Shown: positions 5,594 through 64,000, counted from the first letter of the stretch. The stretch: 64,000 nt of DNA from Squalus acanthias (GCA_030390025.1 CM059431.1:96660001-96724000), one strand, 5' to 3'. The notes: a model not told the origin generated them from the letters alone. Program-made: numbers and translations.

Positions 5594-6084
5594 GAATAGT
5601 TTGTTTGCCAGGAGACATCAGATCGGGCTTGATAAACCGGATACTCCAATAATGTTTCCAGGAAAATTAAAAATGTAGCTTGGTAGAAAGAAGGAATTAG
5701 AGGTTACCAAGAAAGTAGCTGCCCATTCCAAATCACTGAAAAACAAAGGGTCAAACCTTCAAATCTACCAAGCTGAAATTTAGACTAAAGATTCCCACAT
5801 CCCAGGGCTATCAGAAGGTCACCAGGAGAGACTGATGGCAACTCAGCTGGGGCCTGAACGAGACTTCTCAAGACCATGGACAACAAGTAGACCGAGTTAT
5901 CTATTATGGGGCTTGCAAGCAGAGTAATGACTTAGGAAGAGCTTTGGACGGCAACTGGGGTCATGGTCGCCATCTCCTGTCATGACTGAAGGAGTAGCAC
6001 CTAATGTGGTGGTGTCCTCCATCAGGCTAAGGGACATCCTGCAGTCATAGTTTCTGGCATGACAGAATTAACCTTCTGGATTTG

Positions 6085-6440
6085 TTTTATTCATTCTCGG
6101 GATATGGACGACACTGGTGAGGCTGCATTTATTGCCCATCCCTAATTTCCCTAAGTAACTGAGTGGCTTGCTCAGGCACATCAAGGGACATTAAGGGTCA
6201 ACCACAGAGTGTGGGACTGGAGTCACGTGTAGGCCAGGTAAGGACAGCAGGTTCCCTTCCCTGAAGGATGGTAGTGAACTAGTTGTGTTTTTACAACAGT
6301 CAGGCAGTTTTCACGGTCATTTTATCTGGTGCTAGCCCACAAATTACCAGATTTATTGAATTCAATTTCACAACTAGCTAGAGTTTAAATTCTGAATCTG
6401 TGGTTGCCAGTTCAGTGCTGTAACAAGGCTACCAGACCAT
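6085..6440 (-). mobile_element. Old SINE-like derivative of the tRNA-headed LINE
   Basis: Diverged match to 40014-40400; tail TTTATTGCCCATCCCTAATT and body GAAGG..AGTGAAC. Confidence 0.75.
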
Positions 6441-8413: not shown

Positions 8414-8647
8414 TTTTAAAGTTACAAAGTATTAATTGGACAGAGTTTTAAAGTTACAAAGTATTGATTGGACAGAGTTTTAAAGTTACAAAGTATTGAT
8501 TGGAGAGAGTTTTAAAGTTACAAAGTATTAATTGGACAGAGTTTTAAAGTTACAAAGTATTGATTGGACAGAGTTTTAAAGTTACAAAGTATTGATTGGA
8601 CAGAGTTTTAAAGTTACAAAGTATTGATTGGAGAGAGTTTTAAAGTT
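8414..8647. repeat. 32-bp minisatellite, about 7.3 copies
   Basis: Unit TTTTAAAGTTACAAAGTATTGATTGGACAGAG starting at 8414, 8446, 8478 ... 8638. Confidence 0.97.
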
Positions 8648-8785
8648 AGCTACTTCAAAAGCAATTTAAAGCTTTCATGCTTATCAATCACATGACACTT
8701 CATTCTGAAATCTGAAGAGATTTTATAGATCAGATATACCACAAAAAGCAGATTTAGCTTTACACTGGTGGGAAATGTATTACAA

Positions 8786-14460: not shown

Positions 14461-16528
14461 CAGCCCCGTCACACAGCACAGGGCCCCGGCACACAGCACA
14501 GGGCCCCGGCACACAGCACAGGGCCCCGGCACACAGCACAGGGCCCTGGCACACAGCACAGGGCCCTGGCACACAGCACAGGACACAGGGCCCCGGCACA
14601 CAGCACAGGGCCCTGGCACACAGCACAGGACACAGGGCCCCGACACACAGCACAGGGCCCCGGCACACAGCACAGGGCCCCGGCACACAGCACAGGGCCC
14701 CGGCACACAGCACAGGACACAGGGCCCCGGCACACAGCACAGGACACAGGGCCCCGACACACAGCACAGGACACAGGGCCCCGACACACAGCACAGGACA
14801 CAGGGCCCCGACACACAGCACAGGGCCCCGGCACACAGCACAGGGCCCCAGCACACAGCACAGGACACAGGGACCCGGCACACAGCACAGGGCCCCGGCA
14901 CACAGCACAGGGCCCTGGCACACAGCACAGGACACAGGGACTCAGCACAGGACATAGGGCCCAGGCACACAGCACAGGACACAGGGCCCCGACACACAGC
15001 ACAGGGACCCGGCACACAGCACAGGGCCCTGGCACACAGCACAGTGCCCCGGCACACAGCACAGGACACAGGGCCCCGGCACACAGCACAGGGCCCCGGC
15101 ACACAGCACAGGACACAGGGCCCCGACACACAGCACAGGGCCCCAGCACACAGCACAGGACACAGGGCCCCGACACACAGCACAGGGCCCCGGCACACAG
15201 CACAGGGCCCCGGCACACAGCACAGGACACAGGGACCCAGCACAGTACATAGGGCCCCGGCACACAGCACAGGACACAGGGCCCCGACACACAGCACAGG
15301 GCCCCGGCACACAGCACAGGGCCCCGGCACACAGCGCAGGACACAGGGCCCCGGCACACAGCACAGGGCCCCGGCACACAGCACAGGGCCCCGGCACACA
15401 GCACAGGACACAGGGACTCAGCACAGGACATAGGGCCCAGGCACACAGCACAGGACACAGGGCCCCGACACACAGCACAGGGACCCGGCACACAGCACAG
15501 GGCCCTGGCACACAGCACAGGGCCCCGGCACACAGCACAGGACACAGGGCCCCGGCACACAGCACAGGACACAGGGCCCCGACACACAGCACAGGGCCCC
15601 AGCACACAGCACAGGACACAGGGCCCCAGCACACAGCACAGGACACAGGGACCCAGCACAGTACATAGGGCCCCGGCACACAGCACAGGACACAGGGCCC
15701 CGACACACAGCACAGGGACCCGACACACAGCACAGGACACAGGGCCCCGACACACAGCACAGGGACCCGGCACACAGCACAGGGCCCTGGCACACAGCAC
15801 AGGGCCCCGGCACACAGCACAGGGCCCCGGCACACAGCACAGGGCACAGGGCCCCGACACACAACACAGGGCCCCGGCACACAGCACAGGACACAGGGCC
15901 CCGGCACACAGCACAGGACACAGGGCCCCGACACACAGCACAGGGCCCCAGCACAGGACACAGGGCCCCGGCACACAGCACAGGGCACAGGGCCCCGACA
16001 CACAACGCAGGGCCCCGGCACACAGCACAGGACCCCGACACACAGCACAGGGCCCCAGCACAGGACACAGGGCCCCGGCACACAGCACAGGACACAGGGC
16101 CCCGACACACAGCACAAGACACAGGGCCCCGACACACAGCACAGGACACAGGGCCCCGACACACAGCACAGGACACAGGGCCCCGACACACAGCACAGGG
16201 CCCCGGGCCCCGGCACACAGCACAGGGCCCCGGCACACAGCACAGGACACAGGGCCCCGGCACACAGCACAGGACACAGGGCCCCGACACACAGCACACG
16301 ACACAGGGCCCCGGCACACAGCACAGGGCCTCGGCACAGAGCACAGGACACAGGGCCCCGACACACAGCACAGGACACAGGGCCCCGGCACACAGCACAG
16401 GACACAGGGCCCCGGCACACAGCACAGGACACAGGGCCCCGACACACAGCACAGGACACAGGGCCCCGGCACACAGCACAGGACACAGGGCCCCGACACA
16501 CAGCACAGGGCCCCAGCACAGGACACAG
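14461..16528. repeat. GC-rich minisatellite of mixed 20-bp and 27-bp units
   Basis: GCACACAGCACAGGGCCCCG and the variant with added GACACAG, about 2.07 kb. Confidence 0.97.
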
Positions 16529-16740
16529 GACCACCCGACATTGACCTAGGCATTGGATTCGGACATGACAAAGGCACACCCAGCCAAGTCGACCCTGCAA
16601 AGTCCTCCTCACTAACATTTGGGGACCCGAGCAAAAATTGAGAGAGTTGTCCTACAGACGAGTCAACCACCAGCCTGACACGGTCATACTCACAGAATCA
16701 TACCTTTCAGATGCCCACATCCTGAGAATGAATAAAAAAA
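16528..16740 (+). mobile_element. Internally deleted derivative of the tRNA-headed LINE
   Basis: Matches the reverse complement of about 58415-58590 (endonuclease start KVLLTNIWG) joined directly to the terminal GATGCCCACATCCTGAGAATGAATAAAAAAA. Confidence 0.8.
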
Positions 16741-17545
16741 TGACACAAAAACACACACACACAGCCCAGGCACACACACAGCCCAGGCACACACACACAC
16801 ACACAGCCCTCATACACTGCAACACCTGTTTACTTTGGTTTGTGTGTGTGACCTGCCCCAGACTAGGTGTGGTGATTTGTGATGTGTGAACCTGATTCTG
16901 TGCCGAGAGGTGGGCAGCTCCTTTGAAGCGACAGGTTCATACCCATCACTCTTCTGCGCCGCAAGCAATTGCAAAATGAAAATGGGTTTGGACGTTAACT
17001 ACATTATGCGAAGCAGAAACACAGGACTGCATTCCTGTGAGAGAGTAACTCTGGGTACTGGTTTAGATCTGGATCTAATGTTACAATCCAGATGCAGTTT
17101 ACAGCCACTCACCCAGAGTGCAGCACCTCTGACTGGCCTGGCTGAACCTAAACAGCACCTTTTATACAAGCACTTCCAACAGTTTAACTTGGAGATGTTT
17201 TAAACATAGGTGTAAGTGGCAGGGTGGAAGGAGGCGATGGAATGGTGGGCTGGGCAGAGAACATTCCACCGTGAGTCAGGCACCATTTGGAGTGGTATCA
17301 GTGCCGGTTGGCACAGTGACACACACCACTCACTGTGAAACCGACCTGGAGGCTTGACTCCTTTACAGCAGCAATATTTGAAATTTATCATATGTCGAAT
17401 CAGGCCTCCAAAACACACTGTAACCATGACGACAATCTTAATTCTTGCATTTTTAAATGAAGTCCATCTTCTGTACTGACTGCAGCAACACAAGCAGAGG
17501 AGGAGAACTGTATGTCCCAACTCAGCTCCTAACCCCAACTACAGT

Positions 17546-20085
17546 ACAGAGGCAGAGAGAGCCAGCAAATGAACGAGCCAGAGAGAGAGAGTGAGCTAGA
17601 GGGAGAGCGAGCCAGGGCGAGAGCGAGAGGGAGAGCGCGAGTGAGCCAGAGCGAGAGCGAGAGGGAGAGCGAGCCAGAGAGAGAGGGAGAGCGAGCCAGA
17701 GAGAGAGGGAGAGCGAGCCAGAGAGCAAGAAAGCCAGAGAGAGAGAGAGAGAGAGAAAGAGCGCGAGCGAGCCCGAGAGAGAGAGAGCGAGCGAGCCAGA
17801 GAGACAGTCCGAGCGAGCCAGAGAGAGAGAGAGAGGGAGCCAGAGAGAGAGAGAGAGGGAGCCAGAGAGAGCGAGCGAGCCAGCGAGAGAGAGAGAGAGA
17901 GAGAGAGCGAGCAAGCCAGAGAGAGAGAGAGAGGGAGCCAGAGAGAGCGATCGAGCCAGCGAGAGAGAGAGAGAGAGAGAGAGCAAGCCAGAGAGAGAGA
18001 AAGAGCCAGAGAGAGAGAGTGAGAGAGAGAGAGAGAGTGCGTGAGTGAGCCAGAGAAAGAGCGAGCGAGCCAGAGGGGGCGGGAGAGAGGGGGCGAGGGA
18101 GGGCGGGCGAGAGAGGGGGAGGGGGAGAGAGGGGGGAGGGAGAGAGGGGAGGAGGGGAGAGAGGGGAGAGGGGAGAGAGGGGGAGATGGGGGAGAGAGGG
18201 GAGAGAGAGGGGAGAGAGGGGAGAGGAGGAGAGGGGGAGAAGAGGGGGAGAGAGGGGGAGCGAGGGGGAGAAGGGGAGAAGGGGGAGAGAGGGGGAGAGG
18301 GGGAGAGGGGGAGAGGGGGGAGAGGGAGGGAGCGGGAGGGGGGAGAGGGGGAGAGAGGGGGAGGGGGAGAGAGGGGAGGAGGGGGAGAGAGGGGGGAGAG
18401 GGGGAGAGAGGGGGGAAGCAGGGGAGGGAGAGAGGGGGAGGGGGAGGGGGAGAGAGGGGGGAGGGGGGAGAGAGGGGGGGAGGGGGGAGAGGGNNNNNNN
18501 NNNNNNNNNNNNNNNNNNNNNNNNNNNNNNNNNNNNNNNNNNNNNNNNNNNNNNNNNNNNNNNNNNNNNNNNNNNNNNNNNNNNNNNNNNNNNNNNNNNN
18601 NNNNNNNNNNNNNNNNNNNNNNNNNNNNNGGGCGAGAGAGAGCGAGGGCGAGAGAGTGCGAGGGCGAGGGCGAGAGAGGGCGAGGGCGAGAGCGAGAGAG
18701 GGCGAGGGCGAGGAGAGGGCGAGGGCGAGGGCGAGGGCGAGAGAGGGCGAGAGAGGGCGAGAGAGAGAGAGGGCGAGGGCGAGAGAGGGCGAGAGAGGGC
18801 GAGAGAGGGCGAGAGAGGGCGAAGGCGAGAGAGGGCGAGGGCGAGAGAGGGCGAGGGCGAGAGAGGGCGAGGGCGAGAGAGGGCGAGGGCGAGAGAGGGC
18901 GAGGGCGAGAGAGGGCGAGCGAGAGAGGGCGAGGGCGAGAGAGGGCGAGGGCGAGGGAGGGCGAGGGGAGAGAGGGCGAGGGCGAGGGCGAGAGAGGGCG
19001 AGAGAGGGCGAGAGAGGGCGAGAGAGGGCGAGAGAGGGCGAGAGAGGGCGAGAGAGGGCGAGGGCGAGAGAGGGCGAGGGCGAGAGAGGGCGAGGGCGAG
19101 AGAGGGCGAGGGCGAGAGAGGGCGAGGGCGAGAGAGGGCGAGGGCGAGAGAGGGCGAGGGCGAGAGAGGGCGAGGGCGAGAGAGGGCGAGGGCGAGAGAG
19201 GGCGAGGGCGAGAGAGGGCGAGGGCGAGAGGGGGCGAGGGCGAGAGAGGGCGAGGGAGGGCGAGGGCGAGGGAGGGCGAGGGCGAGGGAAGGCGAGGGCG
19301 AGGGAGGGCGAGGGCGAGGGAGGGCGAGGGAGGGCGAGGGCGAGGGAGGGCGAGGGAGGGCGAGGGCGGGCGAGCGAGGGCGAGCGAGGGCGAGCGAGGG
19401 CGAGAGCGAGAGAGGGCGAGGGCGAGAGAGGGCGAGGGCGAGAGAGGGCGAGGGCGAGAGAGGGCGAGGGCGAGAGAGGGCGAGGGCGAGAGAGGGCGAG
19501 GGCGAGAGAGGGCGAGAGAGGGCGAGAGAGGGCGAGAGAGGGCGAGGGCGAGAGAGGGCGAGGGCGAGAGAGGGCGAGGGAGGGCGAGAGAGGGCGAGGG
19601 AGGGCGAGAGAGGGCGAGAGAGGGCGAGCGAGAGCGAGGGCGAGAGAGTGCGAGGGCGAGGGCGAGAGAGGGCGAGAGAGGGCGAGGGCGAGAGAGGGCG
19701 AGGGCGAGAGAGGGCGAGGGCGAGAGAGGGCGAGGGCGAGAGAGGGCGAAGGCGAGAGAGGGCGAAGGCGAGAGAGGGCGAAGGCGAGAGAGGGCGAAGG
19801 CGAGGGCGATGAGGGCGAGGGCGAGAGAGGGCGAGAGAGGGCGAGAGAGGGCGAGAGAGGGCGAGAGAGGGCGAGGGCGAGAGAGGGCGAGGGCGAGAGA
19901 GGGCGAGGGCGAGAGAGGGCGAGGGCGAGAGAGGGCGAGGGCGAGAGAGGGCGAGGGCGAGAGAGGGCGAGGGCGAGAGAGGGCGAGGGCGAGAGAGGGC
20001 GAGAGAGGGCAAGGAGGGCGAGGGCGAGGGAGGGAGAGGGCGAGGGAGAGGGCGAGCGAGAGCGGGCGAGGGCGAGAGAGCGAGG

Positions 20086-20134
<49 letters not shown>

Positions 20135-20175
20135 CGAGCGAGCGAGCGAGCCGGAGAGAAATTGAGAGAGAGAAC

Positions 20176-20218
<43 letters not shown>

Positions 20219-20385
20219 AGAGACAGAGCGCGCGAGCGACCCAGAGAGAGAGCGCGCGAGCGAGCCAGAGAGAGAGCGCGCGAGCGACAGGAGAGAGAGG
20301 GGGACAGGTGAGGAGGGCGGCGGGGGCGAGAGCGAGGCGAGAGAGCGAGAGCGGGCGACAGAGAGAGAGAGCGAGGCAGCCAGAG

Positions 20386-20429
<44 letters not shown>

Positions 20430-20882
20430 ACGGGAGAGAGACAGAGCGCTCGAGCAACCCAGAGAGAGAGAGAGGGGGGGCGAGAGAGAGGGCGAGGGCG
20501 AGAGCGGGCGAGGGCGAGAGAGGGCGAGCGAGGGGGAGGGGGAGAGAGGGGTAGGGCGAGAGAGGGCGAGAGAGGGCAAGGGAAAGCGAGGGAGGGCGAG
20601 CGAGGGCGAGGGCGAGCGCGGGCGAGAGCGAGAGAGGGCGAGGGCGAGAGAGGGCGAGGGCGAGAGAGGGCGAGAGAGGGCGAGAGAGGGCGAGGGCAAG
20701 AGAGGGCGAGAGAGGGTGAGGGCGAGAGAGGGCGAGGGCGGGCGAGAGAGGGCGAGGGCAAGAGAGGGCGAGCGAGGGCGAGAGAGGGCGAGGGCGAGAG
20801 GGCACGAGGGCGAGAGGGGGCGAGGGCGAGAGGGGGCGAGGGCGAGAGAGCGAGAGCGCGAGGGCGAGAGAGGGCGAGGCAG

Positions 20883-20930
<48 letters not shown>

Positions 20931-21005
20931 CGAGCGAGCGAGCGAGCGAGCGAGAGAGAGAGAGAGAGAGAGAGTGAGCCGGAGACAGAGAGAGCGAGAG
21001 AGAAC

Positions 21006-21045
<40 letters not shown>

Positions 21046-21242
21046 CAGAGCGCGCGAGCGACCCAGAGAGAGAGCGCGCGAGCGAGCCAGAGTGAGAGAG
21101 AGGGGGCGAGAGAGAGGGGGGTGGGGTGAGAGTGAGGGGGGGGGCGAGAGGGGGGGGGCGAGAGAGAGGGTGGGCGAGAGCGGGCGAGGGCGAGAGAGGG
21201 CGGGCGAGGGCGAGAGAGGGCGAGAGAGGGCGAGAGAGGGCA
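17546..21242. repeat. Polypurine GA/GGGCGA low-complexity array containing an assembly gap
   Basis: (GA)n, GAGGGC and GAGAGAGGGC units; N run 18494-18629. Confidence 0.97.
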
Positions 21243-37167: not shown

Positions 37168-39282
37168 TTTCAAATAAAACTGTTGGACTATAACCTGGTG
37201 TTGTGCGACTTCTCACTTTTGTCCACCTCAGTCCAACACCGGCATCTCCGCAAAATAAATTAAAGCTAGTATTAAGTCAAAGGAGGAAGCTTATAACGTT
37301 GCCAGAAAAAGCGGTCAGCCTGAAGATTGGGATCTTTTCAGAAATCAGCAAAGGGGGACCAAGAAATTGATAAAGAAAGGGAAAATGGAATAAGAGCACA
37401 ATCTAGCAAAAAATATAAAAACGGATTGTAAAAGCTTCGAAAGGTATGTGAAAAGGAAAAGACTGGCGAAGGTAAATGTGGATCCTTTACAGTCAGAGAT
37501 GGGAGAATTTATAATGGGGAATGAGGAAATGGCAGAGAAATTAAATAAATACTTTGCTTCTGTTTTCACGGAGGAAGACACAAATAACCTCCCAGAAATA
37601 TGAGAAAAGCAAGGGTGGGGTGAGAATGAGGAACTTAAAGAAATTATTATTTGTAAAAAAACAGTACTAGCAAAATTAATGGGACTATAGGTCGATAAAT
37701 CCCAAGGACCGGATGAACTACATCCTAGGGTTTTGAAGGAGGTGGCCATTGGGATAGTGGACGCATTGGTTGTCATCTTCCAAAATTCTATAGATTCTGG
37801 AATGGTTCCTGCAGATTGGAGGATAGCAAATGTAACCCCGCTATTTAAGAAAGGAGGGAGAGAGAAAACGGGGAACTACAGACCTGTAAGCCTCACATCA
37901 GTAGTCGGGAAAATGCTGGAATCTATTATAAAGGATGCAATAACTGGGCACTTAGAAACTAATAGTAAGATTGGGCAGAGTCGACATGGATTTATGAAAG
38001 GGAAATCCTGTTTGACAAACCTATTGGAGTTCTTTGAGGATGTAACGAGTGGAGTCGACAAAGGGGAACCGGTAGATGTGGTGTATTTGGATTTTCAGAA
38101 GGCCTTCGATAAGGTCCCACATAAGAGGTTGGTGAACAAAATTAGGGCACATGGAATTGGGGGTAATATACTAGCATAGATTGAGAATTGGTTAACAGAC
38201 AGAAAACAAAGAGTAGGGATAAACGGGCCTTTTTCAGGATGGCAGGCTGTGACTAGTGGGGTACCGCAAGGATCGGTGCTTGGGCCCCAGCTATTCACAA
38301 TCTATATCAATGATTTGGATGAGAGTATTAAATGTAACATTTCCAAATTTGCTGATGATACAAAGCTAGGTGGCAGTGTCAGTTGTGAAGAGGATGTGAA
38401 GAGGCTTCAAGGGGATCTCGACAGGCTCAGTGAGTGGGCGAGAACATGGTAGATGGAATATAATGTGGATAAATGTGAAGTTATCCACTTTGGTAGAAAA
38501 AACAGAAAGGCAGAGTATTTCCTAAATGGTGAAAGATTGGGGAATGCAGATGCTCAAAGGGACCTGGGTGTCCTTGTACATGAGTCACTGAAAGTGAATG
38601 TGCAGGTGCAGCAAGCCATTAGGAAGGCAAATGGTATGCTGGCCTTCATTACAAGAGGATTTGAGTACAGGAGTAAAGAAGTCTTACTCCAATTATATAG
38701 GGCCTTGGTGAGACCACACCTGGAGTACTGTGTACAATTTTGGTCTCCTTACCTAAGGAAGGATATACTTGCCATAGAGGGAGTGCAACGAAGGTTCACA
38801 AGATTGATTCCTGGGATGGCGGGACTGTCGTATGAGAAGAGATTGAGTAAACTAGGCCTGTATTCTCTTGAATTCAGAAGAATGAGAGGGGATCTCATTG
38901 AAGCATACAAAATTATTACAGGGCTTGATAGGGTGGATGCTGGGAGAATGTTTCCCTTGGCTGGGGAGTTTAGAACCAGGGGCCACAGCCTCAGGATAAA
39001 GGGTAGGCCATTCAGGACCGAGATGAGAAAAAATTTCTTCACACAGAGGGTGGTGAATCTTTGGAATTCTCTACCCCAGAGGGCTGTGGAGGCTCAGTCA
39101 TTGGGTATATTCAAAACAGAAGTCGATAAATTTCTGACAGGTAAAGGCATCAAGGGATATGACGATAGGGCTGGTGAATGGAGTTGAGGCAGAAGATCAG
39201 CCATGATCATATTGAATGGCGGAGCAGGCTTGAAGGGCCGAATGGCCTATTCCTGCTCCTATTTTTCTATGTTTCTGTTTCT

Positions 39283-39608
39283 AAATGTTTCCCCTGGCTG
39301 GGGAATCTAGAACCAGGGGTCATAGTATCAGAATAAGGGGCAGCCATTTAAGACTGAGATGAGGAGAAATTTCTTCACTCAAAGGGTTGTGAATCTTTGG
39401 AATTCTCTACCCCAGAGGGCTGTGGATACTCAGTCGTTGAGTATATTCAAGACAGAGGTCGATAAATTTTTGGGAATGAAGGGAATTAAGGGATAGGGGG
39501 ATAGTGCGGGAAGGTGGAGTTGAGGTAGATAAGCCATGATCTTATTGAATGGCGGAGCAGGTTCGAGGGGCCAAATGCCCTACTCCAGCTCCTATTCTTG
39601 TGTTCTTA
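39283..39608 (+). mobile_element. CR1 fragment A, right part with 3' tail
   Basis: MFPLAGESRTRGH...; tail TTCTTGTGTTCTTA. Confidence 0.88.
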
Positions 39609-40013
39609 GGAACTCGCATTGATTGTATGTTTATTCATTTATAGTTCAAAGCTGAAATAAGTAGAAATATTCATAATTAACATTTAACCATTTCAGAAGT
39701 CCAATACCCACGATTACTGTCACACTTGCCGCAGGCACAAGGTCACATCAACTCTGTCACTGTGGCTCAAATGTGACACAGCCGTTGGATTTATCACACA
39801 CCTGTCTTCCAAATCTCAGCCTCATGAATAAGTGAGCACAATAGACAACATGGATCAATCACATTGCACTTGGTCAGAGCAGGTCTGTCCCCCATGAGTC
39901 TCTCCCCCCGCCACCTCACTCTCACCCCGCATGCCGCCCCCCACCTCTCACACTCTGGGAATAAAATTTAAGCTAATGCACTCAAGGAGCCTGCAGCTGC
40001 TCAGAACCATTAA

Positions 40014-40400
40014 TTTTTTTAAAGTTCATTCACAGGATGTGGGTGTCGCCGGCAAGGCCAGTATTTATTGCCCATCCCTAATTGCCCCCGAGAAGGTGGT
40101 GGTGGGCCGCCTTCTTGAATACAACCGAGTGTCTCGCAGTTAAGAGTCAATTGCTGTGGGTCTGGAATCACATATAGACCAGACCAGGTAAGGACGGCAG
40201 ATTTCCTTCCCTAAAAGGACATTAGTGAACCAGATGGGTTTTTAACGACAATCCGAATTACGGATAATAGCTTTTTATTTCAGATTTATTTAATTTAAAT
40301 TCCCCAGCTGCCGTGGTGGAATTTGAACTCACTTCTCCGGATCATTAGTCCAGGCCTATGGATTACTAGTCTAGTAACATAACCACTATGCTACCGTACC
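40014..40400 (-). mobile_element. tRNA-headed bipartite SINE (5' and 3' ends of the LINE at 53500-58926)
   Basis: A-box-like GGTAGCATAGTGG and B-box GAGTTCAAATTC (40319-40330); 40120-40400 matches 58628-58926; 40014-40119 matches 53500-53603. Confidence 0.88.
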
Positions 40401-52223: not shown

Positions 52224-54187
52224 GCACTGTATACAAATAATTGGAAGTTCACTGCGTGACTGGGGTCCTGAGCTGCTGCAGTAGGGGGTCGTCATGGCAG
52301 TGTGTAGATGATGGAAAGTAACCCAAGTTCTCTACAGCAGAGACAGGGATATTCAGAAAATGGAAGTTGCAGCAAGCGATACTGGTTGGTAACTGGTATC
52401 ATGCAGATATGAGGGACGACAGTTTAACAGGCCAATTCTACTGCTGATTTTGTTTGTTTTGATTCAGAGATGTTGCACTGCAAAGATGAGAGTTATGGAT
52501 CAGCCCTTCCATTGGTCTAAAGATTAAAGATAGTGAAATTGGCCTTTGGCTGCAGTGCAGAACAGGCGATAACGAATCAGCAACCCGATTTCCATTAACT
52601 TCCATTTTGTACTTTCGCTGAAGACCAATTTCCTCTCCCTTGTGCCGAGAGTGCCTCTGTCACATCTCATCGCGTAGCCGCATATGTCTGTAGGAAATAT
52701 CGGTGGCTGGAGGAAATGAAGGGTTACCTAATGGAGAAATTGGATATTTTATTGGTGATTTAACATGAACAAATCAAAAGTACTTTGATTCCATCAGTAA
52801 TGAAATCATTCCAACCGCCACCCACCCCCCACCCCCCAACCCCCACTCCCCAGTAAAATGTACCAATCCCAAACTGGCAACTCAAAGGAAGCCCCAAATC
52901 AAACCTCTCCAAAACTTTTCTTTAGCTGGTTTGAGCCACCATTCCCTCCCCTCAGGTGAAAATTTGTCAAGAGTAAGATTAATAATGCAAGAAACCTCCA
53001 AAAAAAAATTGTGAATAAAGCACTTTTGTTGCCTCTATGGTGCAGATCCCTAGAAAACATTTTCATGCAGGCTTGTTCCTGGAAAACTTGGCTGGAGTTT
53101 GACTTGTTCGGACTTTTCCCCCACCCTTGAAATCGTCCAGGTTCCTCCTGATTGGCTGCAGTCTGCAAACCACAGCAAGCCATCGCTTCAGATTTTATGG
53201 CATCAAATTATAGTTTAATAGTCTCTCACTAATCTATTGAGTTTCATCACATATTGGAGCTGGAAAGGGAGGAGGGGGTCTTGCATTATATATTAGGATT
53301 TAATCATTGATCCAGACAATGCAAACCAGGACCCTTTGGACCTTATCGATGGACAACGTGCTCTTTGTGTTTATTAAAACAGATTTTACTAATTCAATGT
53401 GCAGGCCTGGGTCCTTCAGCTTTGTTTATTCCCACTAAACCAGGTCAGCAACTCAATAGCCCGATGCGCCCATCTCCTGCACCACTTCACTGGGCAGTAT
53501 TTTTTTTTAATTCATTCACAGGATGTGGACATCGCCGGCTAGGCCAGCATTTATTGCCCATCCCTAATTGCTCGAGAAGGTGGTGGTGAGCTGCCTTCTT
53601 GAACCGCTGCAGTCTGTGTCGTGAAGGTGCTCCCACAGTGCTGTTAGGTAGGGAGGGAGTTACAGGATATTGACCCAGATACGGTGAAGGAAAGGAACTA
53701 TACATTCAAGTCAGGATGGTGTGCAACTTTGAGGTGGTGGTGTTCTCATGCGCCTGCTGCCCTCGTCTTTCTAGGTGGTAGAGGTCGTGGGTTTGGGAGG
53801 TGCTGCCGAAGAAGTCTTGGCAAGTTGCTGCAGTGCATCTTATAGATGGTACACACTGCAGCCACGGTGCGTCATTGGTGAAGGGAGTGAATGTATCAGG
53901 TGGTGGATGGAGTGCCAATCAAGCGGACTGCTTTGTCTTGGATGGTGTCGAGCTTCTTGAGTGTTTTGGAGCTACATTCATCCAGGCAAGTGGAGAGTAT
54001 TCCATCACACTCCTGACTTGTGCCTCGTAGGTGGTGGAAAGGCTGTGGGGAATCAGGAGATGAGACACTCGCCGCAGAATACCCAGCCTCTGACCTGCTC
54101 TTGTAGCCACAGTATTTACTGGTTCAGTTAAGTTTCTGGTCAATGGTGACCCCCAGGATATTTATGGTTGGGGATCTGATGATGGTA

Positions 54188-55693
54188 CATAAGAACATAA
54201 GAAATAGGAGCAGGAGTAGGCCATTCGGCCCTTCGAGCCTGCTCCGCCATTCAATGAGATCATGGCTGATCTTCTGCCTCAACTCCATTCACCGGCCTTA
54301 TCGCCATATCCCTTGATGCCCTTACTTGTCAGAAATCTATCGACTTCTGTTTTGAATATACCCAATGACTGAGCCTCCACAGCCCTCTGGGGTAGAGAAT
54401 TCCAAAGATTCACCACCCTCTGTGTGAAGATATTTCTTCTCATCTCAGTCCTGAATGGCCTACCCTTTATCCTGAGGCTGTGGCCCCTGGTTCTAGACTC
54501 CCCAGCCAAGAGAAACATTCTCCCAGCATCCACCCTATCAAGCCCTGTAATAATTTTGTATGCTTCAATGAGATCCCCTCTCATTCTTCTGAATTCAAGA
54601 GAATACAGGCCTAGTTTACTCAATCTCTTCTCATACAACAGTCCCGCCATCCCAGGAATCAATCTTGTGAACCTTCGTTGCACTCCCTCAATGGCAAGTA
54701 TATCCTTCCTTATGTAAGGAGACCAAAATTGTACACAGTACTCCAGGTGTGGTCTCACCAAGGCCCTATATAATTGGAATAAGACTTCTTTACTCCTGTA
54801 CTCAAATCCTCTTGTAATGAAGGCCAGCATACCATTTGCCTTCCTAATGGCTTGCTGCACCTGCACATTCACTTGCAGTGACTCATGTACAAGGACACCC
54901 AGGTCCCTTTGAGCATCTGCGTTCCCCAATCTTTCACCATTTAGGAAATACTCTGCCTTTCTGTTTTTTCTACCAAAGTGGATAACTTCACATTTATCCA
55001 CATTATAATCCATCTGCCATGCTCTCGCCCACTCACTGAGCCTGTCGAGATCCCCTTGAAGCCTTTTCAAACTGACACTGCCACCTAGCTTTGTGTCATC
55101 AGCAAATTTGGAAATGTTACATTTAGTCCCCTCATCCAATTCATTGATATAGATTGTAAATAGCTGGGGCCCAAGCACCGATCCTTGTGGTACCCCACTA
55201 GTCACAGCCTGCCATCCTGAAAAAGACCCGTTTATCCCTACTCTTTGTTTTCTGTCTGTTAACCAATTCTCAATCCATGCTAGTATATTACCCCCAATTC
55301 CATGTGCCCTAATTTTGTTCACCAGCCTCATGCGTGGGACCTCATCGAAGGCCTTCTGAAAATCCAAATACACCACATCTACCGGTTCGCCTTTGTCTAC
55401 TCCACCAGTTAGATCCTCAAAGAACTCCAATAGGTTTGTCAAACAGGACTTCCCTTACATACATCCATGTCGACTCTGCCCAATCTTACTATTGGTTTCT
55501 AAGTGCCCAGTTATTGCATCCTTTATAATAGATTCCAGCATTTTCCCAACTACTGATATGAGGCTAAAAGGTCTGTAGTTGCCCATTTTCTCTCTCCCTC
55601 CTTTCTTAAATAGCGGGGTTACATTTGCTATCCTCCAATCTGCAGGAAACGTTCCAGAATCTGCAGAATTTTGGAAGTTGACAACCAATGCCA
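54188..55693 (-). mobile_element. CR1 3' part (subfamily C)
   Basis: ORF 54279-55442 (387 aa), near-identical to the copy at about 38000-39187. Confidence 0.95.
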
Positions 55694-56239
55694 TTGAATG
55701 TCAAGGGGCAGTGGTTAGACCTCTCTTGTTGGAGATAGTCATTGCCTGGCACTTGTGTGGTGTGAATGTTACTTGCCACTTATCAGCCCAAGCCTGAATG
55801 CTATCCAGGTCTTGCTGCATGCGGGCATGGACTGCTTCATTATCGGAGGAGTTACGGATGGAACTGAACATCGTGCAATCTTCAGCAATCGTCCCCAATT
55901 CTGACCTTATGATGGAGGGAAGGTCATTGATGAAGCAGCTGAAGATGGTTGGGCCTAGGACACTGCCCTGAGGAACTCCTGCAGCGACATCCTGGGGCTG
56001 AGATGATTGGCCTCCAACATTTACAACCATCTTCCTTTGTGCTAGGTATGACTCCAGCCAGAGGAGAGTCTTCCCCGATTCCCACTGACTTCAGTTTTAC
56101 TCGGGCTCCTTGACGCCACACTCAGTCAAATGCTGCCTTGATGTCAAAGCCAGTCACTCTAACCTCATCTCTGGAAATCAACTTTTCTGTCCCTTTTTGG
56201 CTCAAGGCTATAATGAGGTCTGGAGAGGAATGGTCCTGG

Positions 56240-56903
56240 TGGTTAAAGCAGTTAAAAAAGCATACAGGATCCTGGGCTTCATAAATAGAGGCATAGAGTA
56301 CAAAAGCAAGGAAGTTATGATGAACCTTTATAAAACACTGGTCCGGCCTCAACTGGAGTATTGTTTCCAATTCTGGGCACCGCACTTTAGGAAGGATGTG
56401 AAGGCCTTAGAGAGGGTGCAGAAAAGATTTACAAGAATGGTTCCAGGGATGAGGGACTTCAGTTACGTGGATAGACTGGAGAAGCTGGGGTTGTTATCCT
56501 TAGAGCAGAGAAGGTTGAGAGGAGATTTGATAGAGGTGTTCAAAATCATGAGGGATCTAGACAGAGTAGATAGAGAGAAACTGTTACTGTTGGTGGAAGG
56601 GTCAAGAACCAGAGGACACAGATTTAAGGTAATTGGCAGAAGAACCAAAGGCGACATGAGGAAAAACTTTTTTTACGCAGCGAGTGGTTAGGATCTGGAA
56701 TGCACTGCCTGAAAGGGTGGTGGAGGCAGATTCAATCGTGGCTTTCAAGAGGGAATTGGATAAGTACCTGAAGGAAAACAATTTGCAGGGCTACGGAGAA
56801 AGGACAGGGGAGTGGGACTAGCTGAAGTGCTCTTGCAGAGACCCGGCATGGGCTCAACGGGCCGAATGGCCTCCTTCTATGCTGTAACCATTCTATGATT
56901 CTA
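56240..56903 (+). mobile_element. CR1 3' fragment
   Basis: LGFINRGIEYKS..VRPQLEY; TTCTATGATTCTA tail. Confidence 0.93.
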
Positions 56904-59751
56904 TGGCGGAACCCAAACTGAGCATCGGTGAGCAGGTTATTGGTGAGTAAATGCCGCTTGATAGCACTGTCGATGACACCTTCCATCACTTTGCTGATGA
57001 TTGAGAGTAGAATAATGGGACGGTAATTGGACAGGTTGGATTTGTACTGCTTTTTGTGGACAGATATACCTGAGCAATTTTCCACATTGTCCGGTAGATG
57101 CCAGTGTTGTAGCTGTACTGGAACAGCTTGGCTCGAGGCGCGGCTAGTCCTGGAGCACAAGTCTTCAGCACGATAACCCGGATGTTGTCGAGGCCCATAG
57201 CCTTTGCTGTATCCAGTGCGCTCAGCCGTTTCTGGATATCACATAGAGTGAATCAAATTGGCTGAAGACTGGCATCTGTGATGGTGGAGACCTCAGGAGG
57301 AGGCCGATATGGATCATCCACTCGGCACTTCTGGCTGAAGATGGTTGCCAAAGCTTCAGTCTTGCCTTTTGCATTCACGTGCTGGGCTCCGCCATCATTG
57401 AGGATGAGGATGTTCATGGAGCCTCCTCCTACCGTTTGTTGTTTAATGGTCCACCACCATTCACAACTGGATGTGGCAGGACTGCAGAGCTCTGATCTGT
57501 TCCGTTGATTGTGGTATCGCTTAGCTCTGTCTATAGCATGCTGCTTCCACTATTTAGCATGCATGTAGTCCTGTGTTGTAGTTTCACTTGGTTGGCACCT
57601 GATTTTTAGGTACGCCTGGTGCTGCTCCTGGCATGCTCTTCTACATTGAACCTTATTGAACCAGGATTGGTCCCCTGGCTTGATGGTAATGGTAGAGTGA
57701 GAGATATGCCGGGTCATGAAGTTACAGATTGTGGTGCAATAAAATTCTGCTGCTGCTGATGGCCCACAGCGCCTCATGGATGCCCAGTTTGGAGCTGCTA
57801 GATCTGTTCTGAATCTATCCCATTTAGCACGGTGGCAGTGCCACACAACACGATGGAGGGTGTCCTCAGTGTGAAGATGGGATTTCATCTCTACAGTGAC
57901 TGTGCGGTGGTCACTGCTACCAATACTGTCATGGACAGATGCATCTGCAACAGGTAGATTGGTGAGGACGAGGTCAAGTGGTGTTTTCCCTCGTGTTGGT
58001 TCTCTCACCACCTGTCGCAGGCCCAGACTGGCAGCTATGTCCCTTCAGGGCTCGGCCAGCTCGGTCAGTAGTGGTGCTACTGAGCCACTCTTGGGGATGG
58101 ACATTGAAGTCTCCCACCCAGAGTACATTCTGTGCCTTTGCTACTCTCAGTGCTTCGTCCAAGTGGTGTTCACCATGGAGGAGTACTGATTCATCATCTG
58201 AAAGAGGAAGATAGGTGGTAATCAGCAGGAGGTTTCCTTGCCCATGTTTGATGTCATGAGACTTCATGGGGTCCGCAGTCAATGTTGAGGACTCCCAGGG
58301 CCACTCCCTCCTGGCTGTACACCACTCTGCCACCACCTCTGGTTGGTCTGTCCTGCCAGTGGGACAGGACCTACCCAGCGTTATTGATGGAGGAGTCTGG
58401 GCCGTTGGCTGAAAGCTTTGATTGTGAGTATGACTATGTCTGACTGGTGGTTGACTCGTCTGTGGGATAGCTCTCCCAATTTTTTCACAAGTCCCCAGAT
58501 GTTAGTGAGGAAGACTTTGCTGGGATGACTGAGTTGGGTGTGCCTTTGTCATGTCTGAATCCGATGCCTAGGTCAATGCCGGGTGGTCTGTCCGGTTTTA
58601 TTCTTGTACTTTGTCGTAGTGGTTTGATACAACTGAGTGGCTTGCTAGGCCAGTTCAGAGGGCAGTTAAGAGTCAACCACATTGCTGTGGGTCTGGAGTC
58701 ACCAGGTAAGGACCGCAGGTTTCCTTACCTAAAGGATATGAGTGAACCAGATGGGTTTTTCCGGCAATCTGTTAAGTTTCACGGTCACCATTACTGATAC
58801 TAGCTTTTTATTCCAGATTTATTTAATTAACTGAATTTAAATTCCCCAGCTGCCGTGGTGGGATTTGAACTCATGTCACCAGATCATTAGTCCTGGTCCA
58901 GTAACGTAACCACTATGTTACCACATACAGCCACATGGTCCGGGAACCGCTTGGGGTGGGGGAATAGAGAAAGACCATCAGTCTACAATGGTCTCAAGTC
59001 AGCCTGAGTGCTTCCCAGTCCTGCTGTGCCCACGTGACAAGAGAAACGTTGTACTTCAAATTGTGCCATGGTTTGGTTATTTTCTAACATGCTGAGTGGT
59101 TGAATCTCTTATTTATGTGGATCTGGGCATCTGAGAGAGAACATAAACACAAACACAAACAGCAGAGAAAGAGTAAAGTTTAAAGGTGGGGAATTCTGGA
59201 TGGGCTGTTCATTATCTCGTGATTGAGGAGGAGTTGTGAATAAGAAGTCCGGAGCTGAGACACCTTTATACAGTCAGGACCTTTTTAGCTGTTATAGAAA
59301 CCTTTGGTAAAATGGAAGGTTATTTTCATCTTTTCAAGTTTTGGGACCTTGTGTCAAAAGCTGCCCCCAGCCCCATCTGCTTACTCCGTATCCATCAGTA
59401 AACCGCTCTTCAGAATCTCTCTGCTAAGCTTAAAACAGATATTACAAAAAAGATATTAGAGTAGGAACATGTAAAACAGATTATTTAAAGCTGTATCTGC
59501 AACTGAAAGAGTAAAAGCAGGAAGCCATAATCTAGCTCATGTGCTTTAGCGTAACATCTGGTATTCCTGGTTTGCTGAGAAGTGGTCTAATTTCTTAATT
59601 GTCACCTTATTCATTATCTGTAGTGTTGGTCTGGCCTCAATAAAACCACTTTAGTGGCAAATAAAAAGTTTGTTTTTGAAACACACCCAATTAATATAGG
59701 CCAAAAATAAAAAGCATATACAAGAGAGATTGTGCAAGCAAGTGGGGAAAA

Positions 59752-60192
59752 AAGAACAAACTTGCATTTATACAGCGCATTTCATTACCTCAGTGTCCCA
59801 AAGTGTTTCATAGTCAATTTAGTATTTTTGAAGTGTAGTCACTGTTGTAATGTAGGAAACACGGAAGACAATTTTGTGCAGAGCAAGATCCCACAAACAG
59901 CAATCTGTTTTAGTGATGTTGGTTGATGGATAAATATTGGCCAGGACACTAGGATAATTCCTTTGCTCTTCTTCGAATAGTGACATGGGATCTTTTACAT
60001 CAACCTGGGAGAGCAGACGGGGGCTAGGTTTAACGGCTCATCCAAAAGACAGCACCTCCGACAGTGCAACACTCCCTCAGTACTGCACTGGGAGTGTCAA
60101 CCTGGATTATGGGCTCAAGTCTCTGGAGTGGGACTTGAACCCATGATCTCCTGACTCAGAGACGAGAGGGATACCCACTGAGCCATGGCTGA
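59752..60192 (-). mobile_element. DeuSINE (SacSINE1-like): tRNA head, Deu domain, L2-type tail
   Basis: Minus strand TGGCTCAGTGG A-box and GGTTCAAGTCC B-box; GGAGGTGCTGTCTTTTGGATGAG..AAAAGATCCCATG..GTGTCCTGGCCAA Deu-like core, recognised from memory. Confidence 0.8.
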
Positions 60193-61030: not shown

Positions 61031-61254
61031 CAATAGTGTCCTCTACATCACCAGACAATGCAGAAAGTCGACATAAATCTGGAGAATATGGCCTGAGCCA
61101 CAGTCCAAGAGGAGCAATGGAGGGAGCATGAATGTGGTCCTCTGCCTACAGTAGGTTGAGGGAAAGGAAAGTCGACATTTTCCAATCACATCTCACCCTA
61201 CACGGACCTTTCCGACAAGGACTGGCACAAAGCCACCACAAACCACGCATTTGG

Positions 61255-62265
61255 TTCCGCAAGGATCGGTGCTTGGGCCCCAGCTATTCACAATCTATAT
61301 CAATGATTTGGATGAGGGGACTAAATGTAACATTTCCAAATTTGCTGATGACACAAAGCTCGGTGGCAGTGGCAGTTGCGAAGAGGCTTCAAGGGGATCT
61401 CGACAGGCTCAGTGAGTGGGCGAGAACATGGCAGATGGAATATAATGTGGATAAATGTGAAGTTATCCACTTTGGTAGAAAAAACAGAAAGGCAGAGTAT
61501 TTCCGAAATGGTGAAAGATTGGAGAATGCAGATGCTCAAAGGGACCTGGGTGTCCTTGTACATGAGTCACTGAAAGTGAGTGTGCAGGTGCAGCAAGCCA
61601 TTAGGAAGGCAAATGGTATGCTGGCCTTCATTACAAGAGGATTTGAGTACAGGAGTAAAGAAGTCTTACTCCAATTATATAGGGCCTTGGTGAGACCACA
61701 CCTGGAGTACTGTGTACAATTTTGGTCTCCTTACCTAAGGAAGGATATACTTGCCATAGAGGGAGTGCAACGAAGGTTCACGAGATTGATTCCTGGGATG
61801 GCGGGATTGTCGTATGAGAAGAGATTGAGTAAACTAGGCCTGTATTCTCTTGAATTCAGAAGAATGAGAGGGGATCTCATTGAAGCATACAAAATTATTA
61901 CAGGGCTTGATAGGGTGGATGCTGGGAGAATGTTTCCCTTGGCTGGGGAGTCTAGAACCAGGGGCCACAGCCTCAGGATAAAGGGTAGGCCATTCAGGAC
62001 TGAGATGAGAAGAAATTTCTTCACACAGAGGGTGGTGAATCTTTGGAATTCTCTACCCCAGAGAGCTGTGGAGGCTCAGTCATTGGGTATATTCAAAACA
62101 GAAGTCGATAAATTTCTGACAGGTAAAGGCATCAAGGGATATGACGATAGGGCTGGTGAATGGAGTTGAGGCAGAAGATCAGCCATGATCATATTGAATG
62201 GCGGAGCAGGCTCAAAGGGCCGAATGGCCTACTCCTGCTCCTATTTCTTATGTTCTTATGTTCTG
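61255..62265 (+). mobile_element. CR1 3' fragment (subfamily C)
   Basis: Near-identical to 38265-39270; (TTCTTATG)n tail. Confidence 0.95.
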
Positions 62266-63767: not shown

Positions 63768-64000
63768 TCAGTTTGGCTCAGTGGGTAGCACTCTCACCTG
63801 ACTCAGAAGGATGTGGATTCAAGCACCACGCCAGCCCCTGATCTAGACTGACAATCCCAGTGCAGTACTGAGCTGAACTGTCAGAGGGGCAATACTGAGG
63901 GAGCGCCGCACTGTCAGAGGGGCAGTACTGAGGGAGTGCTGCACTGTCAGAGGGGCAGTACTGAGGGAACGCCGCACTGTCGGAGGGGCAGTACTGAGGG
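63768..64000 (+). repeat. DeuSINE head running into a 33-bp minisatellite derived from the SINE body
   Basis: TGGCTCAGTGG / GATTCAAGC boxes, then CAGTACTGAGGGAGTGCTGCACTGTCAGAGGGG units at 63890, 63923, 63956, 63989. Confidence 0.85.

Follow-up and report, generated by a model that had tools for sequence, protein, structure and literature searches.

Textbooks divide retrotransposons into LINEs, which RNA polymerase II (Pol II) transcribes and which code for protein, and SINEs, which are transcribed by Pol III and are non-coding. On the minus strand of a 64,000-nucleotide stretch of Squalus acanthias DNA (GCA_030390025.1 CM059431.1:96660001-96724000; hereafter the window), a preliminary description had read 53500..58926 as a single autonomous-type LINE that lacks ORF1 and begins with a tRNA-like Pol III promoter. 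Does this SINE-like head belong to the LINE, and what might it do there?

Results

The locus is a dead, 5′-complete copy of an elasmobranch Zenon LINE that was later hit by two other LINE insertions. The A-box-like motif, the B-box, the body, the endonuclease start LTNIWGL and the A-rich tail all lie on the minus strand where the preliminary description had placed them. As one LINE, however, the 5.4-kb span did not hold: the native element measures about 3.26 kb, and two nested CR1-type fragments had been missed. The first part of the native ORF (56904..58509, minus strand) runs from LTNIWGL through the APE endonuclease and a linker region to the start of the reverse transcriptase (RT). Pfam gave Exo_endo_phos at E 2e-4 and RVT_1 at E 9e-5 for this part, both under the curated cut-offs, and shark proteins matched it at 65-93% in tblastn. 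The RT core follows at 55692..56245 (minus strand; RVT_1 E 1.4e-12 over 55704-56090, and tblastn), and tblastn with full-length relatives placed the C-terminal region at 53564..54186 (minus strand), with a stop near 53566-53564. In the 3′ UTR (53500..53563, minus strand), the sequence shows an AATAAA (53555) 47 nt ahead of an A9 tail (53508-53500), as in Pol II messages; this UTR is common to short copies in the window (81-90% to 40008-40119, 6081-6147 and 16710-16740). A search for a target-site duplication of the Zenon element gave 5-mers only.

One insertion (56246..56903, plus strand) is an antisense 3′ fragment of another LINE, presumably CR1-like, with a ATTCTATG-type microsatellite at its end. 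It was recognised from copies elsewhere in the window at 64-77%, and the protein P0003 continues uninterrupted over its insertion point. The other (54187..55691, minus strand) is a 3′ fragment, in the same sense, of a younger CR1-type LINE that carries a TTCTTATG tail; it was identified by RVT_1 and by its copies, at 95-97% (37763-39273 and 61253-62261) or 76-83% (the others), with a tandem unit at 45388. The sole long ORF of 53500..58926 (54279-55454, 391 aa, RVT_1 E 1e-21) was rejected as the Zenon element's own, since it sits in this insert. Several stops and frameshifts interrupt the native ORF, so this copy is dead.

Endonuclease and RT lie in one frame, as indicated by Pfam on the fragments and by colinear tblastn with single-frame relatives of 935-990 aa (for example, residues 126-898 of P0107). 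The element has no ORF1 and a poly-A tail instead of a microsatellite, both marks of Zenon, and has neither the esterase ORF1 nor the microsatellite tail of canonical vertebrate CR1. An RT tree (125-aa piece, 32 rows, no labelled references) gave it no clear place beyond separating it from the 91/92 group in which the CR1 insert falls. Zenon was among the clades that the preliminary description had suggested, and our placement in it follows the label of the matching consensus in the accessible part of Stuart et al. (2026; PMC13343379), where the family and its consensus are already published and the lack of ORF1 is a known trait. The native length agrees with the published consensus lengths, which we count towards both membership of the Zenon family and head-ORF linkage. 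The element is an old, abundant retrotransposon of sharks and rays that encodes its own copying enzymes, and its relatives include a Penaeus monodon cluster. In viral contigs, the junction pattern had no match and P0107 no relatives. A metagenome scan with P0001 gave 4 loci out of 143 candidates; each of the four is a distant LINE, with identities of 23-36%. The matches of a 19-nt body pattern, two viral and six prokaryote, spanned only 19-23 nt each and were dismissed as chance.

The putatively tRNA-derived head was placed at 58850..58929 (minus strand) from contig depth, the starts of 7/7 consensus sequences and alignment with the copy at 40 kb. According to this alignment it lacks about 15 nt between the boxes, and loose contig ends fall at 58893. 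The A-box-like motif TAACATAGTGG (58910..58920, minus strand) and the B-box AGTTCAAATCC (58861..58872, minus strand) each show one mismatch to the consensus, TRGYNNARTGG and GGTTCRANTCC, respectively. Pairs of such quality at 25-65 nt spacing occur twice in the window, in the Zenon head and in a SINE at 60185 that is unrelated to it; 30 block shuffles averaged 0.13 such pairs, with a maximum of 2. For the B-box by itself there is no excess over chance, with 4 matches in the window where 7.9 are expected. In the head of the 53500..58926 copy, ARAGORN found 0 tRNA genes and Rfam no tRNA match at E<=10, and at the gathering threshold Rfam found nothing in the window. The SINE-size copy, whose head is fuller, gave a weak Rfam tRNA match at 40346-40400 (13.9 bits, E 2.2, below the gathering score of 29), in which the D-arm aligns together with a loop of anticodon type (7 nt, AGU). 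When head, linker and tail were folded, |z| stayed below 1 in 5/5 pieces, with z-scores of 0.11 and 0.97 in the tRNA-head test. Taken together, the boxes and the sub-threshold Rfam match suggest that the head derives from a tRNA.

Head, body and linker open 7/7 elasmobranch Zenon consensus rows and 0/3 hagfish and coelacanth rows in the accessible part of PMC13343379 Table S2 (first 400 letters, compared by eye). The seven rows (SquAca_Zenon-1/2/3, CarCar_Zenon-1, RhiTyp_Zenon-1, ScyCan_Zenon-1 and HypSab_Zenon-1; 2,886-3,314 letters) represent five species, four sharks and one stingray. In the same 400 letters, the 5′ end of the window element is alike to these rows over about 370 nt, most closely to the SquAca rows, and an 18-mer of the window matches SquAca_Zenon-1 and -2 exactly. 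Six exact B-box 10-mers matched 6 of 1,003 CR1-group consensus rows, all six elasmobranch Zenon; an exact B-box 10-mer stands in the three SquAca rows, and the stingray row has one B-box variant. Contigs of four runs from four organisms are deep over head, linker and endonuclease (1e5-1e6 inside, 0-47 in the flank beyond 58934), which puts the 5′ end at about 58929-58924; we used this contrast alone, and the summed depth of contigs does not amount to a copy number. Divergent contigs bridge body and linker (X2 record 15, 58536-58669, 18 differences; X9 record 31, 58537-58699, 13 differences and 9 gaps) and linker and endonuclease (X7 record 24, 58451-58605, 22 differences); among the contigs listed, none spans head to endonuclease. 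P0249, a predicted protein of another genome, fuses body-derived residues to the endonuclease start. Extension by a pipeline could, in principle, make a consensus take in the end of an abundant SINE. The contrast between the elasmobranch and the other rows indicates that the link of head and ORF is family-wide rather than the chance arrival of a SINE. Uniqueness to this locus, the outcome that the preliminary description had named as fatal, is excluded by the seven rows, the bridging contigs and P0249, and its view of the head as part of the LINE stands. The lepidopteran Zenon derivative Persaeus carries a Zenon 5′ end with no tRNA homology or Pol III promoter in the parts of the report available (PMC6740152), so the head is a gain of this lineage.

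In three short copies in the window, a 5′ part of the element meets its tail, each time at another junction, and all three carry A-tails. A SINE-size relative at 40008..40397 (minus strand) fuses head and body to the final ~110 nt of the LINE, with an overlap of 4 nt (TCAA). An older SINE-size relative at 6081..6440 (minus strand; left edge approximate) has the same body and tail, another junction and a divergent 5′ part. An internally deleted relative at 16529..16740 (plus strand) fuses linker and endonuclease start to the tail's final 30 nt, and its 5′ side adjoins a tandem array. The body (58625..58849, minus strand), common to the SINE-size copies, matches 40136-40395 and 6166-6362 at 71% including gaps in blastn. 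Six short exact body motifs, searched with the central domains of the SINE superfamilies Meta, Deu, UCON3, CORE and V in mind, had 0 matches in the accessible supplements of PMC7245038 and PMC4824008, exact matching being insensitive. In our judgement it is close to certain that the element has the structure described, that head and ORF are linked throughout the family, and that the short derivatives have head, body and tail in common with it.

LTNIWGL begins at 58509, which leaves about 416 nt on its 5′ side. This is too short for an ORF1, as had been claimed, and the longest upstream ATG frame (65 aa) had no Pfam match. The A-rich linker (58510..58624, minus strand; 85% to the copy at 16529-16710) reads in three-frame translation as an Arg-rich leader without ATG in the endonuclease frame, with two TGA stops in the window copy. 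That frame has no ATG from 58644 as far as 57888, the site of its first one, and the NCBI shark protein P0001 begins at the equivalent Met. In P0249, an upstream-ATG frame (SPVDPAK) continues into VLLTNIW, so an ordinary ATG start may be possible in some copies. A Met precedes the endonuclease motif in 20/27 long relatives, a count that is uninformative because gene callers begin proteins at Met. In the accessible part of Table S3, where the passages do not state the getORF mode, the top ORF2 lengths are 739 and 747 aa, against ~720 codons from late Met to stop here (hand count); the closeness may be coincidence. Three AATAAA motifs fall in the first 330 nt of the element, two of them in the body (58823 and 58812), and such a position would be awkward for a Pol II mRNA.

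The sense strand of the element has 1 TTTT and 0 T5 in 3,248 nt, compared with 5.2 TTTT in base shuffles (P 0.027) and with 3-6 TTTT per 1.3-1.5 kb in eight CR1-type copies. In this one copy the scarcity of T-runs, which the preliminary description had proposed to check, is weak: it is not significant under a dinucleotide model (P 0.22) or two codon-aware nulls (P 0.30 and 0.11). Moreover, C-runs are depleted about as strongly (observed and expected: TTT 15 and 31, TTTT 1 and 6.7; CCC 38 and 68, CCCC 6 and 18.7), and L001, an unrelated LINE without a head, also has 1 TTTT in 4,555 nt. The single TTTT is probably a later mutation, since the window reads F where P0001, P0002 and P0003 read L. 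The first 400 letters hold 0 TTTT in the seven elasmobranch rows, which are not independent; each of the remaining three has one or more (accessible part, by eye).

Discussion

Considering these results, we propose, with a probability of roughly 0.4, that elasmobranch Zenon may have switched to Pol III: it would have a tRNA promoter, T-run terminators purged over 3.3 kb and an uncapped RNA translated without an in-frame AUG for the endonuclease, would long have prospered in sharks and rays, and its SINEs would be its deletion products. That the head is a working Pol III promoter of the element is, judged from sequence, an even bet; the persistence of both boxes at the outermost 5′ end, in sharks and rays alike, counts in its favour. 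In this model, the tRNA-derived head would have been gained at the Zenon 5′ end before the shark/ray split and then kept. TFIIIC would bind the A and B boxes inside the element, with Pol III starting at the element's first base, so that every new full-length copy would carry its own promoter. The polymerase would traverse 3.3 kb nearly without TTTT and stop in the flank. Uncapped RNA is usually translated poorly, and the model supposes a non-standard start, at a non-AUG codon or by a shift from an out-of-frame upstream ATG. Target-primed reverse transcription is the established LINE mechanism, by which the APE-RT protein would insert the RNA from its 3′ tail; internal deletions would yield ready-made Pol III SINEs, mobilised by the same protein. 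R2 has a single ORF and an uncapped RNA not made by Pol II, and starts without AUG. Its RNA is cut by a ribozyme from a Pol I co-transcript (an aspect also covered in PMC5786205, as far as accessible), and it is site-specific, with a different endonuclease. R2 is a possible working analogy for Zenon expression.

Alternatively, Pol II might make the long RNA, from a promoter in head or body or by host read-through, and only the short derivatives would use Pol III; the tRNA head would then be a captured 5′ UTR serving as Pol II promoter, stabilising 5′ structure or translation element. We regard this as a real possibility, at clearly less than even odds. LINEs are as a rule Pol II elements (PMC5786205 and PMC10886601, parts accessible), a capped RNA would be easier to translate, an AATAAA stands ahead of the tail, and the T-run tests lose significance when composition or codons are kept, C-runs being equally scarce. 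It explains less readily why both boxes are kept at the very 5′ end in 7/7 rows (one B-box variant, in the stingray), why TTTT is almost absent over 3.2 kb and why AATAAA motifs lie near the 5′ end; in the part available, Kojima (2018; PMC5786205) also raises, as a speculation, a conflict between the cis-elements of Pol II and Pol III. Use of both polymerases from the head, with Pol III RNA as the copied template and a minor capped Pol II RNA supplying protein in trans, would bring the scarcity of T-runs into line with the AATAAA at the 3′ end and with the difficulty of translation, and the many SINE-size derivatives show protein acting in trans on the Zenon tail; it requires two promoters within 300 nt, the other two models are simpler, and we think it improbable. 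A SINE lying beside, or recombined once with, a 5′-truncated LINE at this locus, or an artefact of consensus extension, would suit the abundant SINE-size form (two window copies), the greater depth over body than over linker and the want of one listed contig from head to ORF, but is largely refuted and very improbable, as the window copy and seven rows from five species have the identical head-body-linker join, the SINE tail is absent there, divergent contigs bridge it in two other organisms and P0249 shows it in another genome.

Set against the elasmobranch Zenon consensus, the window copy is a broken member with two insertions and nothing different in kind. We take HE1/HER1 to be tRNA-headed SINEs of cartilaginous fishes that share only their tail with an L2 or CR1 LINE. 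The following comparisons apply to the parts of the cited papers that were accessible. The element resembles the published elasmobranch Zenon (~3.3 kb, with a poly-A tail, without ORF1 and with crustacean elements among its relatives; PMC13343379) and lepidopteran Zenon/Persaeus (Zenon clade, ~3.3 kb, poly-A tail; Wang et al., 2019; PMC6740152). Persaeus likewise shows repeated birth of short 5′-plus-3′ derivatives at microhomologies; it lacks a Pol III promoter and any homology to tRNA, 5S or 7SL (PMC6740152), whereas the shark derivatives are true tRNA-headed SINEs because their parent LINE carries the head. Bov-tA/Bov-A/BovB and the RTE- and Vingi-derived SINEs also combine a tRNA head, a LINE 5′ part and a LINE 3′ tail (Kojima, 2018; PMC5786205); in these bipartite SINEs it is a deleted LINE that received the head, the autonomous LINE being headless, while the shark autonomous LINE is headed. 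SacSINE1 and CmiSINE with L2-2_CM (PMC5499810) and HE1/HER1 (named in PMC4824008) are tRNA-headed SINEs of cartilaginous fishes with a tail common to a LINE; their descriptions set them apart, with the tail alone in common, L2 or CR1 as partner and no headed LINE.

In the accessible text of Stuart et al. (2026; PMC13343379), the head, the SINE derivatives and the start-codon problem are not discussed, and the words tRNA, Pol III and promoter are absent from it and from the preprint. Neither a tRNA-headed Zenon nor a Pol III LINE was described in the literature searched; a description may exist in Repbase, Dfam, subscription journals or bioRxiv supplements, which lay outside it. The head and its consequences appear unreported as far as could be searched, while the family and its lack of ORF1 are not new.

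A LINE family whose tRNA promoter head has persisted in both sharks and rays blurs the division between LINEs and SINEs, and one-step deletion of a headed LINE is a second route to the origin of SINEs. If the use of Pol III is true, the family would be a natural case of a protein of ~1,000 residues made from a Pol III transcript, and cap-independent, non-AUG initiation would become testable in a vertebrate element. Even with a Pol II RNA, repeat annotation in elasmobranchs is affected, because the SINE and LINE 5′ ends are the same sequence.

Results

Structure of the element and its surroundings

The preliminary description had treated 53500..58926 as one LINE; the head, endonuclease and tail that it listed are present, but window self-comparison showed that the span also includes two inserts of other LINEs. 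On the minus strand, an A-box-like motif (58920-58910) and a B-box (58872-58861), each with one mismatch to the consensus, precede the endonuclease motif LTNIWGL (start 58509), and an A9 tail at 53500 forms the 3' end. The inserts are 3' fragments of other LINEs, one antisense (56246-56903) and one sense (54187-55691, copies at most 97% identical); the latter holds the sole long ORF of the span (391 aa), and the native element is about 3.26 kb once both are removed. A- and B-box pairs of such quality occur twice in the window versus 0.13 times in block shuffles, the B-box by itself showing no excess over chance there. The native reading frame is interrupted by stops and frameshifts and CpG is depleted (o/e 0.36), so the copy is old and dead. 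A target-site duplication was searched for around the element and not found. We regard the observed structure as almost certainly real.

CR1-type 3' fragments are densely scattered through the window and fall into at least three age classes by identity to the nested insert (64-65%, 76-83% and 95-97%); at 39009-39624, the 3' end of a CR1 is duplicated in tandem. Long GC-rich and purine-rich tandem arrays with extreme strand skew (units of 20-47 nt and 10-16 nt) occupy 14463-21241, and a 32-nt unit is repeated seven times at 8414-8648. An unrelated second tRNA-headed SINE lies at 59820-60190 on the minus strand (A-box 60185, B-box 60141), which we take to resemble SacSINE1-type Deu-SINEs; a relative of it begins at 63774 on the plus strand and continues into a 33-nt tandem array (63877-64000) built from part of this SINE.

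Assignment to Zenon

The closest proteins were shark gene models (Heptranchias, Heterodontus, Pristiophorus; 66-79% identity), while the remaining 22 of the 26 long matches reached 23-40%, many being 935-990 aa on contigs of 3.2-4.7 kb, and one cluster among them included Penaeus monodon members. Together, these matches pointed to Zenon. The accessible text of PMC13343379 (Stuart et al., 2026) reports this already published family in five elasmobranchs, groups it with crustacean elements, and describes the elasmobranch members as always lacking ORF1 and ending in poly-A. Absence of ORF1 is a Zenon hallmark. Few intact copies are listed in Table S3 of that paper, for example 3 of 612 in the stingray. 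An 18-mer of the window head matched exactly the SquAca_Zenon-1 and SquAca_Zenon-2 rows among the consensus sequences of PMC13343379; two further window motifs had no match, probably because only the first 400 letters of each row were covered. An RT tree that we built from a 125-aa piece did not settle the position of the element. The Zenon label rests on the 18-mer match, the structure and the tree of PMC13343379. Parts of this LINE have been spliced into shark gene models (P0004, P0010, P0019, P0021, P0029, P0205), including aldo-keto reductase, storkhead-box, LRRC32-like and anoctamin-7-like models; these are probably annotation artefacts and possibly exonisation.

The head as part of the LINE

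That the tRNA-like head belongs to the LINE, as had been proposed, was confirmed by consensus rows, B-box 10-mers, bridging contigs and a predicted protein. By eye, over the first 400 letters, all seven elasmobranch Zenon rows (white shark, whale shark, catshark, stingray and three of spiny dogfish) begin with a shared head, body and linker, and none of the three non-elasmobranch rows does (two hagfish and one coelacanth, the latter mostly lower case, so that its 5' end may be weak). Six exact B-box 10-mers, scanned on the sense strand of the first 400 letters, matched 6 of 1,003 CR1-group rows, all of them elasmobranch Zenon; the stingray row carries a variant B-box. In four sequencing runs from four organisms, contig depth over head, linker and endonuclease was thousands-fold above the flank beyond 58934. 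Divergent contigs bridged the body-linker join (X2 record 15, X9 record 31) and the linker-endonuclease join (X7 record 24), and none of the 32 pieces listed ran from head to ORF in one contig. Single-copy contigs crossed the 5' junction in runs X1 (0 differences) and X9 (11 differences and 4 gaps), indicating an insertion common to two organisms. P0249, a predicted protein from another genome, reads body-derived residues first and then the endonuclease.

As judged from 58850-58929 and the consensus rows, the full head carries a further hairpin, located past the anticodon-like arm and before the B-box, whose appearance suggests arm duplication or a long variable arm; the parent tRNA could be Thr (AGU loop) or a long-arm Ser type.

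Translation start

In the window copy, no in-frame ATG occurs from the stop at 58647 to 57888, well beyond the endonuclease, and the NCBI shark protein P0001 starts at the 57888 Met. The leader in the endonuclease frame is Arg-rich, as are the N-termini of the relatives P0107 and P0130. Only in the stingray row could the frame be traced by eye to the motif, and there the linker ATG lies in a different frame. Because the upstream frame of P0249 continues directly into the endonuclease, translation may begin conventionally in some copies or involve a programmed shift. A 65-codon ATG frame (58682-58485, minus strand) has its start within the SINE body and overlaps, in a different register, with the beginning of the endonuclease; by eye, it is open in the visible part of the white shark and catshark rows but carries a stop in those of stingray, whale shark and SquAca-1, and is therefore not conserved.

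Discussion

Origin of the head and of the short copies

Three short window copies share the tail of the element, joined at three different points: head and body to tail with a 4-nt overlap (40008-40397), body with a divergent head to tail (6081-6440), and linker with endonuclease start to tail (16529-16740, plus strand). Such differing joins, one inside the ORF, are the pattern given by repeated internal deletion of one parent, as the accessible text of PMC6740152 shows for the butterfly Zenon derivative Persaeus. A tRNA may have been captured straight onto the LINE, the SINEs being its deletion products. Alternatively, in line with Kojima's model (PMC5786205, accessible part), a LINE carrying a deletion may have given rise to a SINE, whose head then returned to the LINE via the shared body. 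That heads were exchanged is shown by the divergent one on the copy at 6 kb. Short motifs compared between the body and two SINE supplements had no match, which is weak evidence.

The element (58576-58549, minus strand) and the copy at 16529-16740 have TGA stops at the same two leader places in the endonuclease frame, where consensus rows read CGA; this points to CpG decay that took place in parallel or to a subfamily that is non-coding.

A candidate Pol III promoter

At about even odds, we favor a Pol III promoter function for the head, with transcription that would begin at the first base of the element. Sharks and rays alike keep both boxes at the very start of the element, and three AATAAA near the 5' end were also counted in favor. 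The suspected depletion of sense-strand TTTT held against a base shuffle (1 TTTT and no T5 in 3,248 nt; shuffle mean 5.2, P 0.027) but not under dinucleotide (P 0.22) or codon-aware nulls (P 0.30 and 0.11). CR1-type copies have 3-6 TTTT per 1.3-1.5 kb, and the sole TTTT of the element falls at a residue differing in three homologues. Against this reading, C-runs are as scarce as T-runs in the native sense sequence, an AATAAA lies upstream of the A-tail, the tRNA match of the head is below threshold, and the unrelated control L001, a LINE-like contig from a marine metagenome in which two long sense frames overlap, also has just 1 TTTT in about 4.5 kb (L001:1-4555).

Novelty and evolutionary meaning

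The published consensus shows the head, which goes undiscussed in the accessible text of PMC13343379 and its preprint, where "tRNA", "Pol III" and "promoter" gave 0 matches. No description of a tRNA-headed Zenon was found in the openly accessible literature searched; the accessible parts of PMC7245038, PMC5499810, PMC4824008, PMC10886601, PMC11481361, PMC10294476, PMC4016481, PMC3531059 and 10.1101/443036 describe no headed LINE.

The Zenon 5' end in Persaeus has no tRNA homology according to the accessible text of PMC6740152. Considering this together with the presence of the head in elasmobranch but not hagfish or coelacanth rows, we conclude that the head was gained in the elasmobranch lineage, before the shark-ray split. 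Sharks and rays separated roughly 270-300 million years ago.
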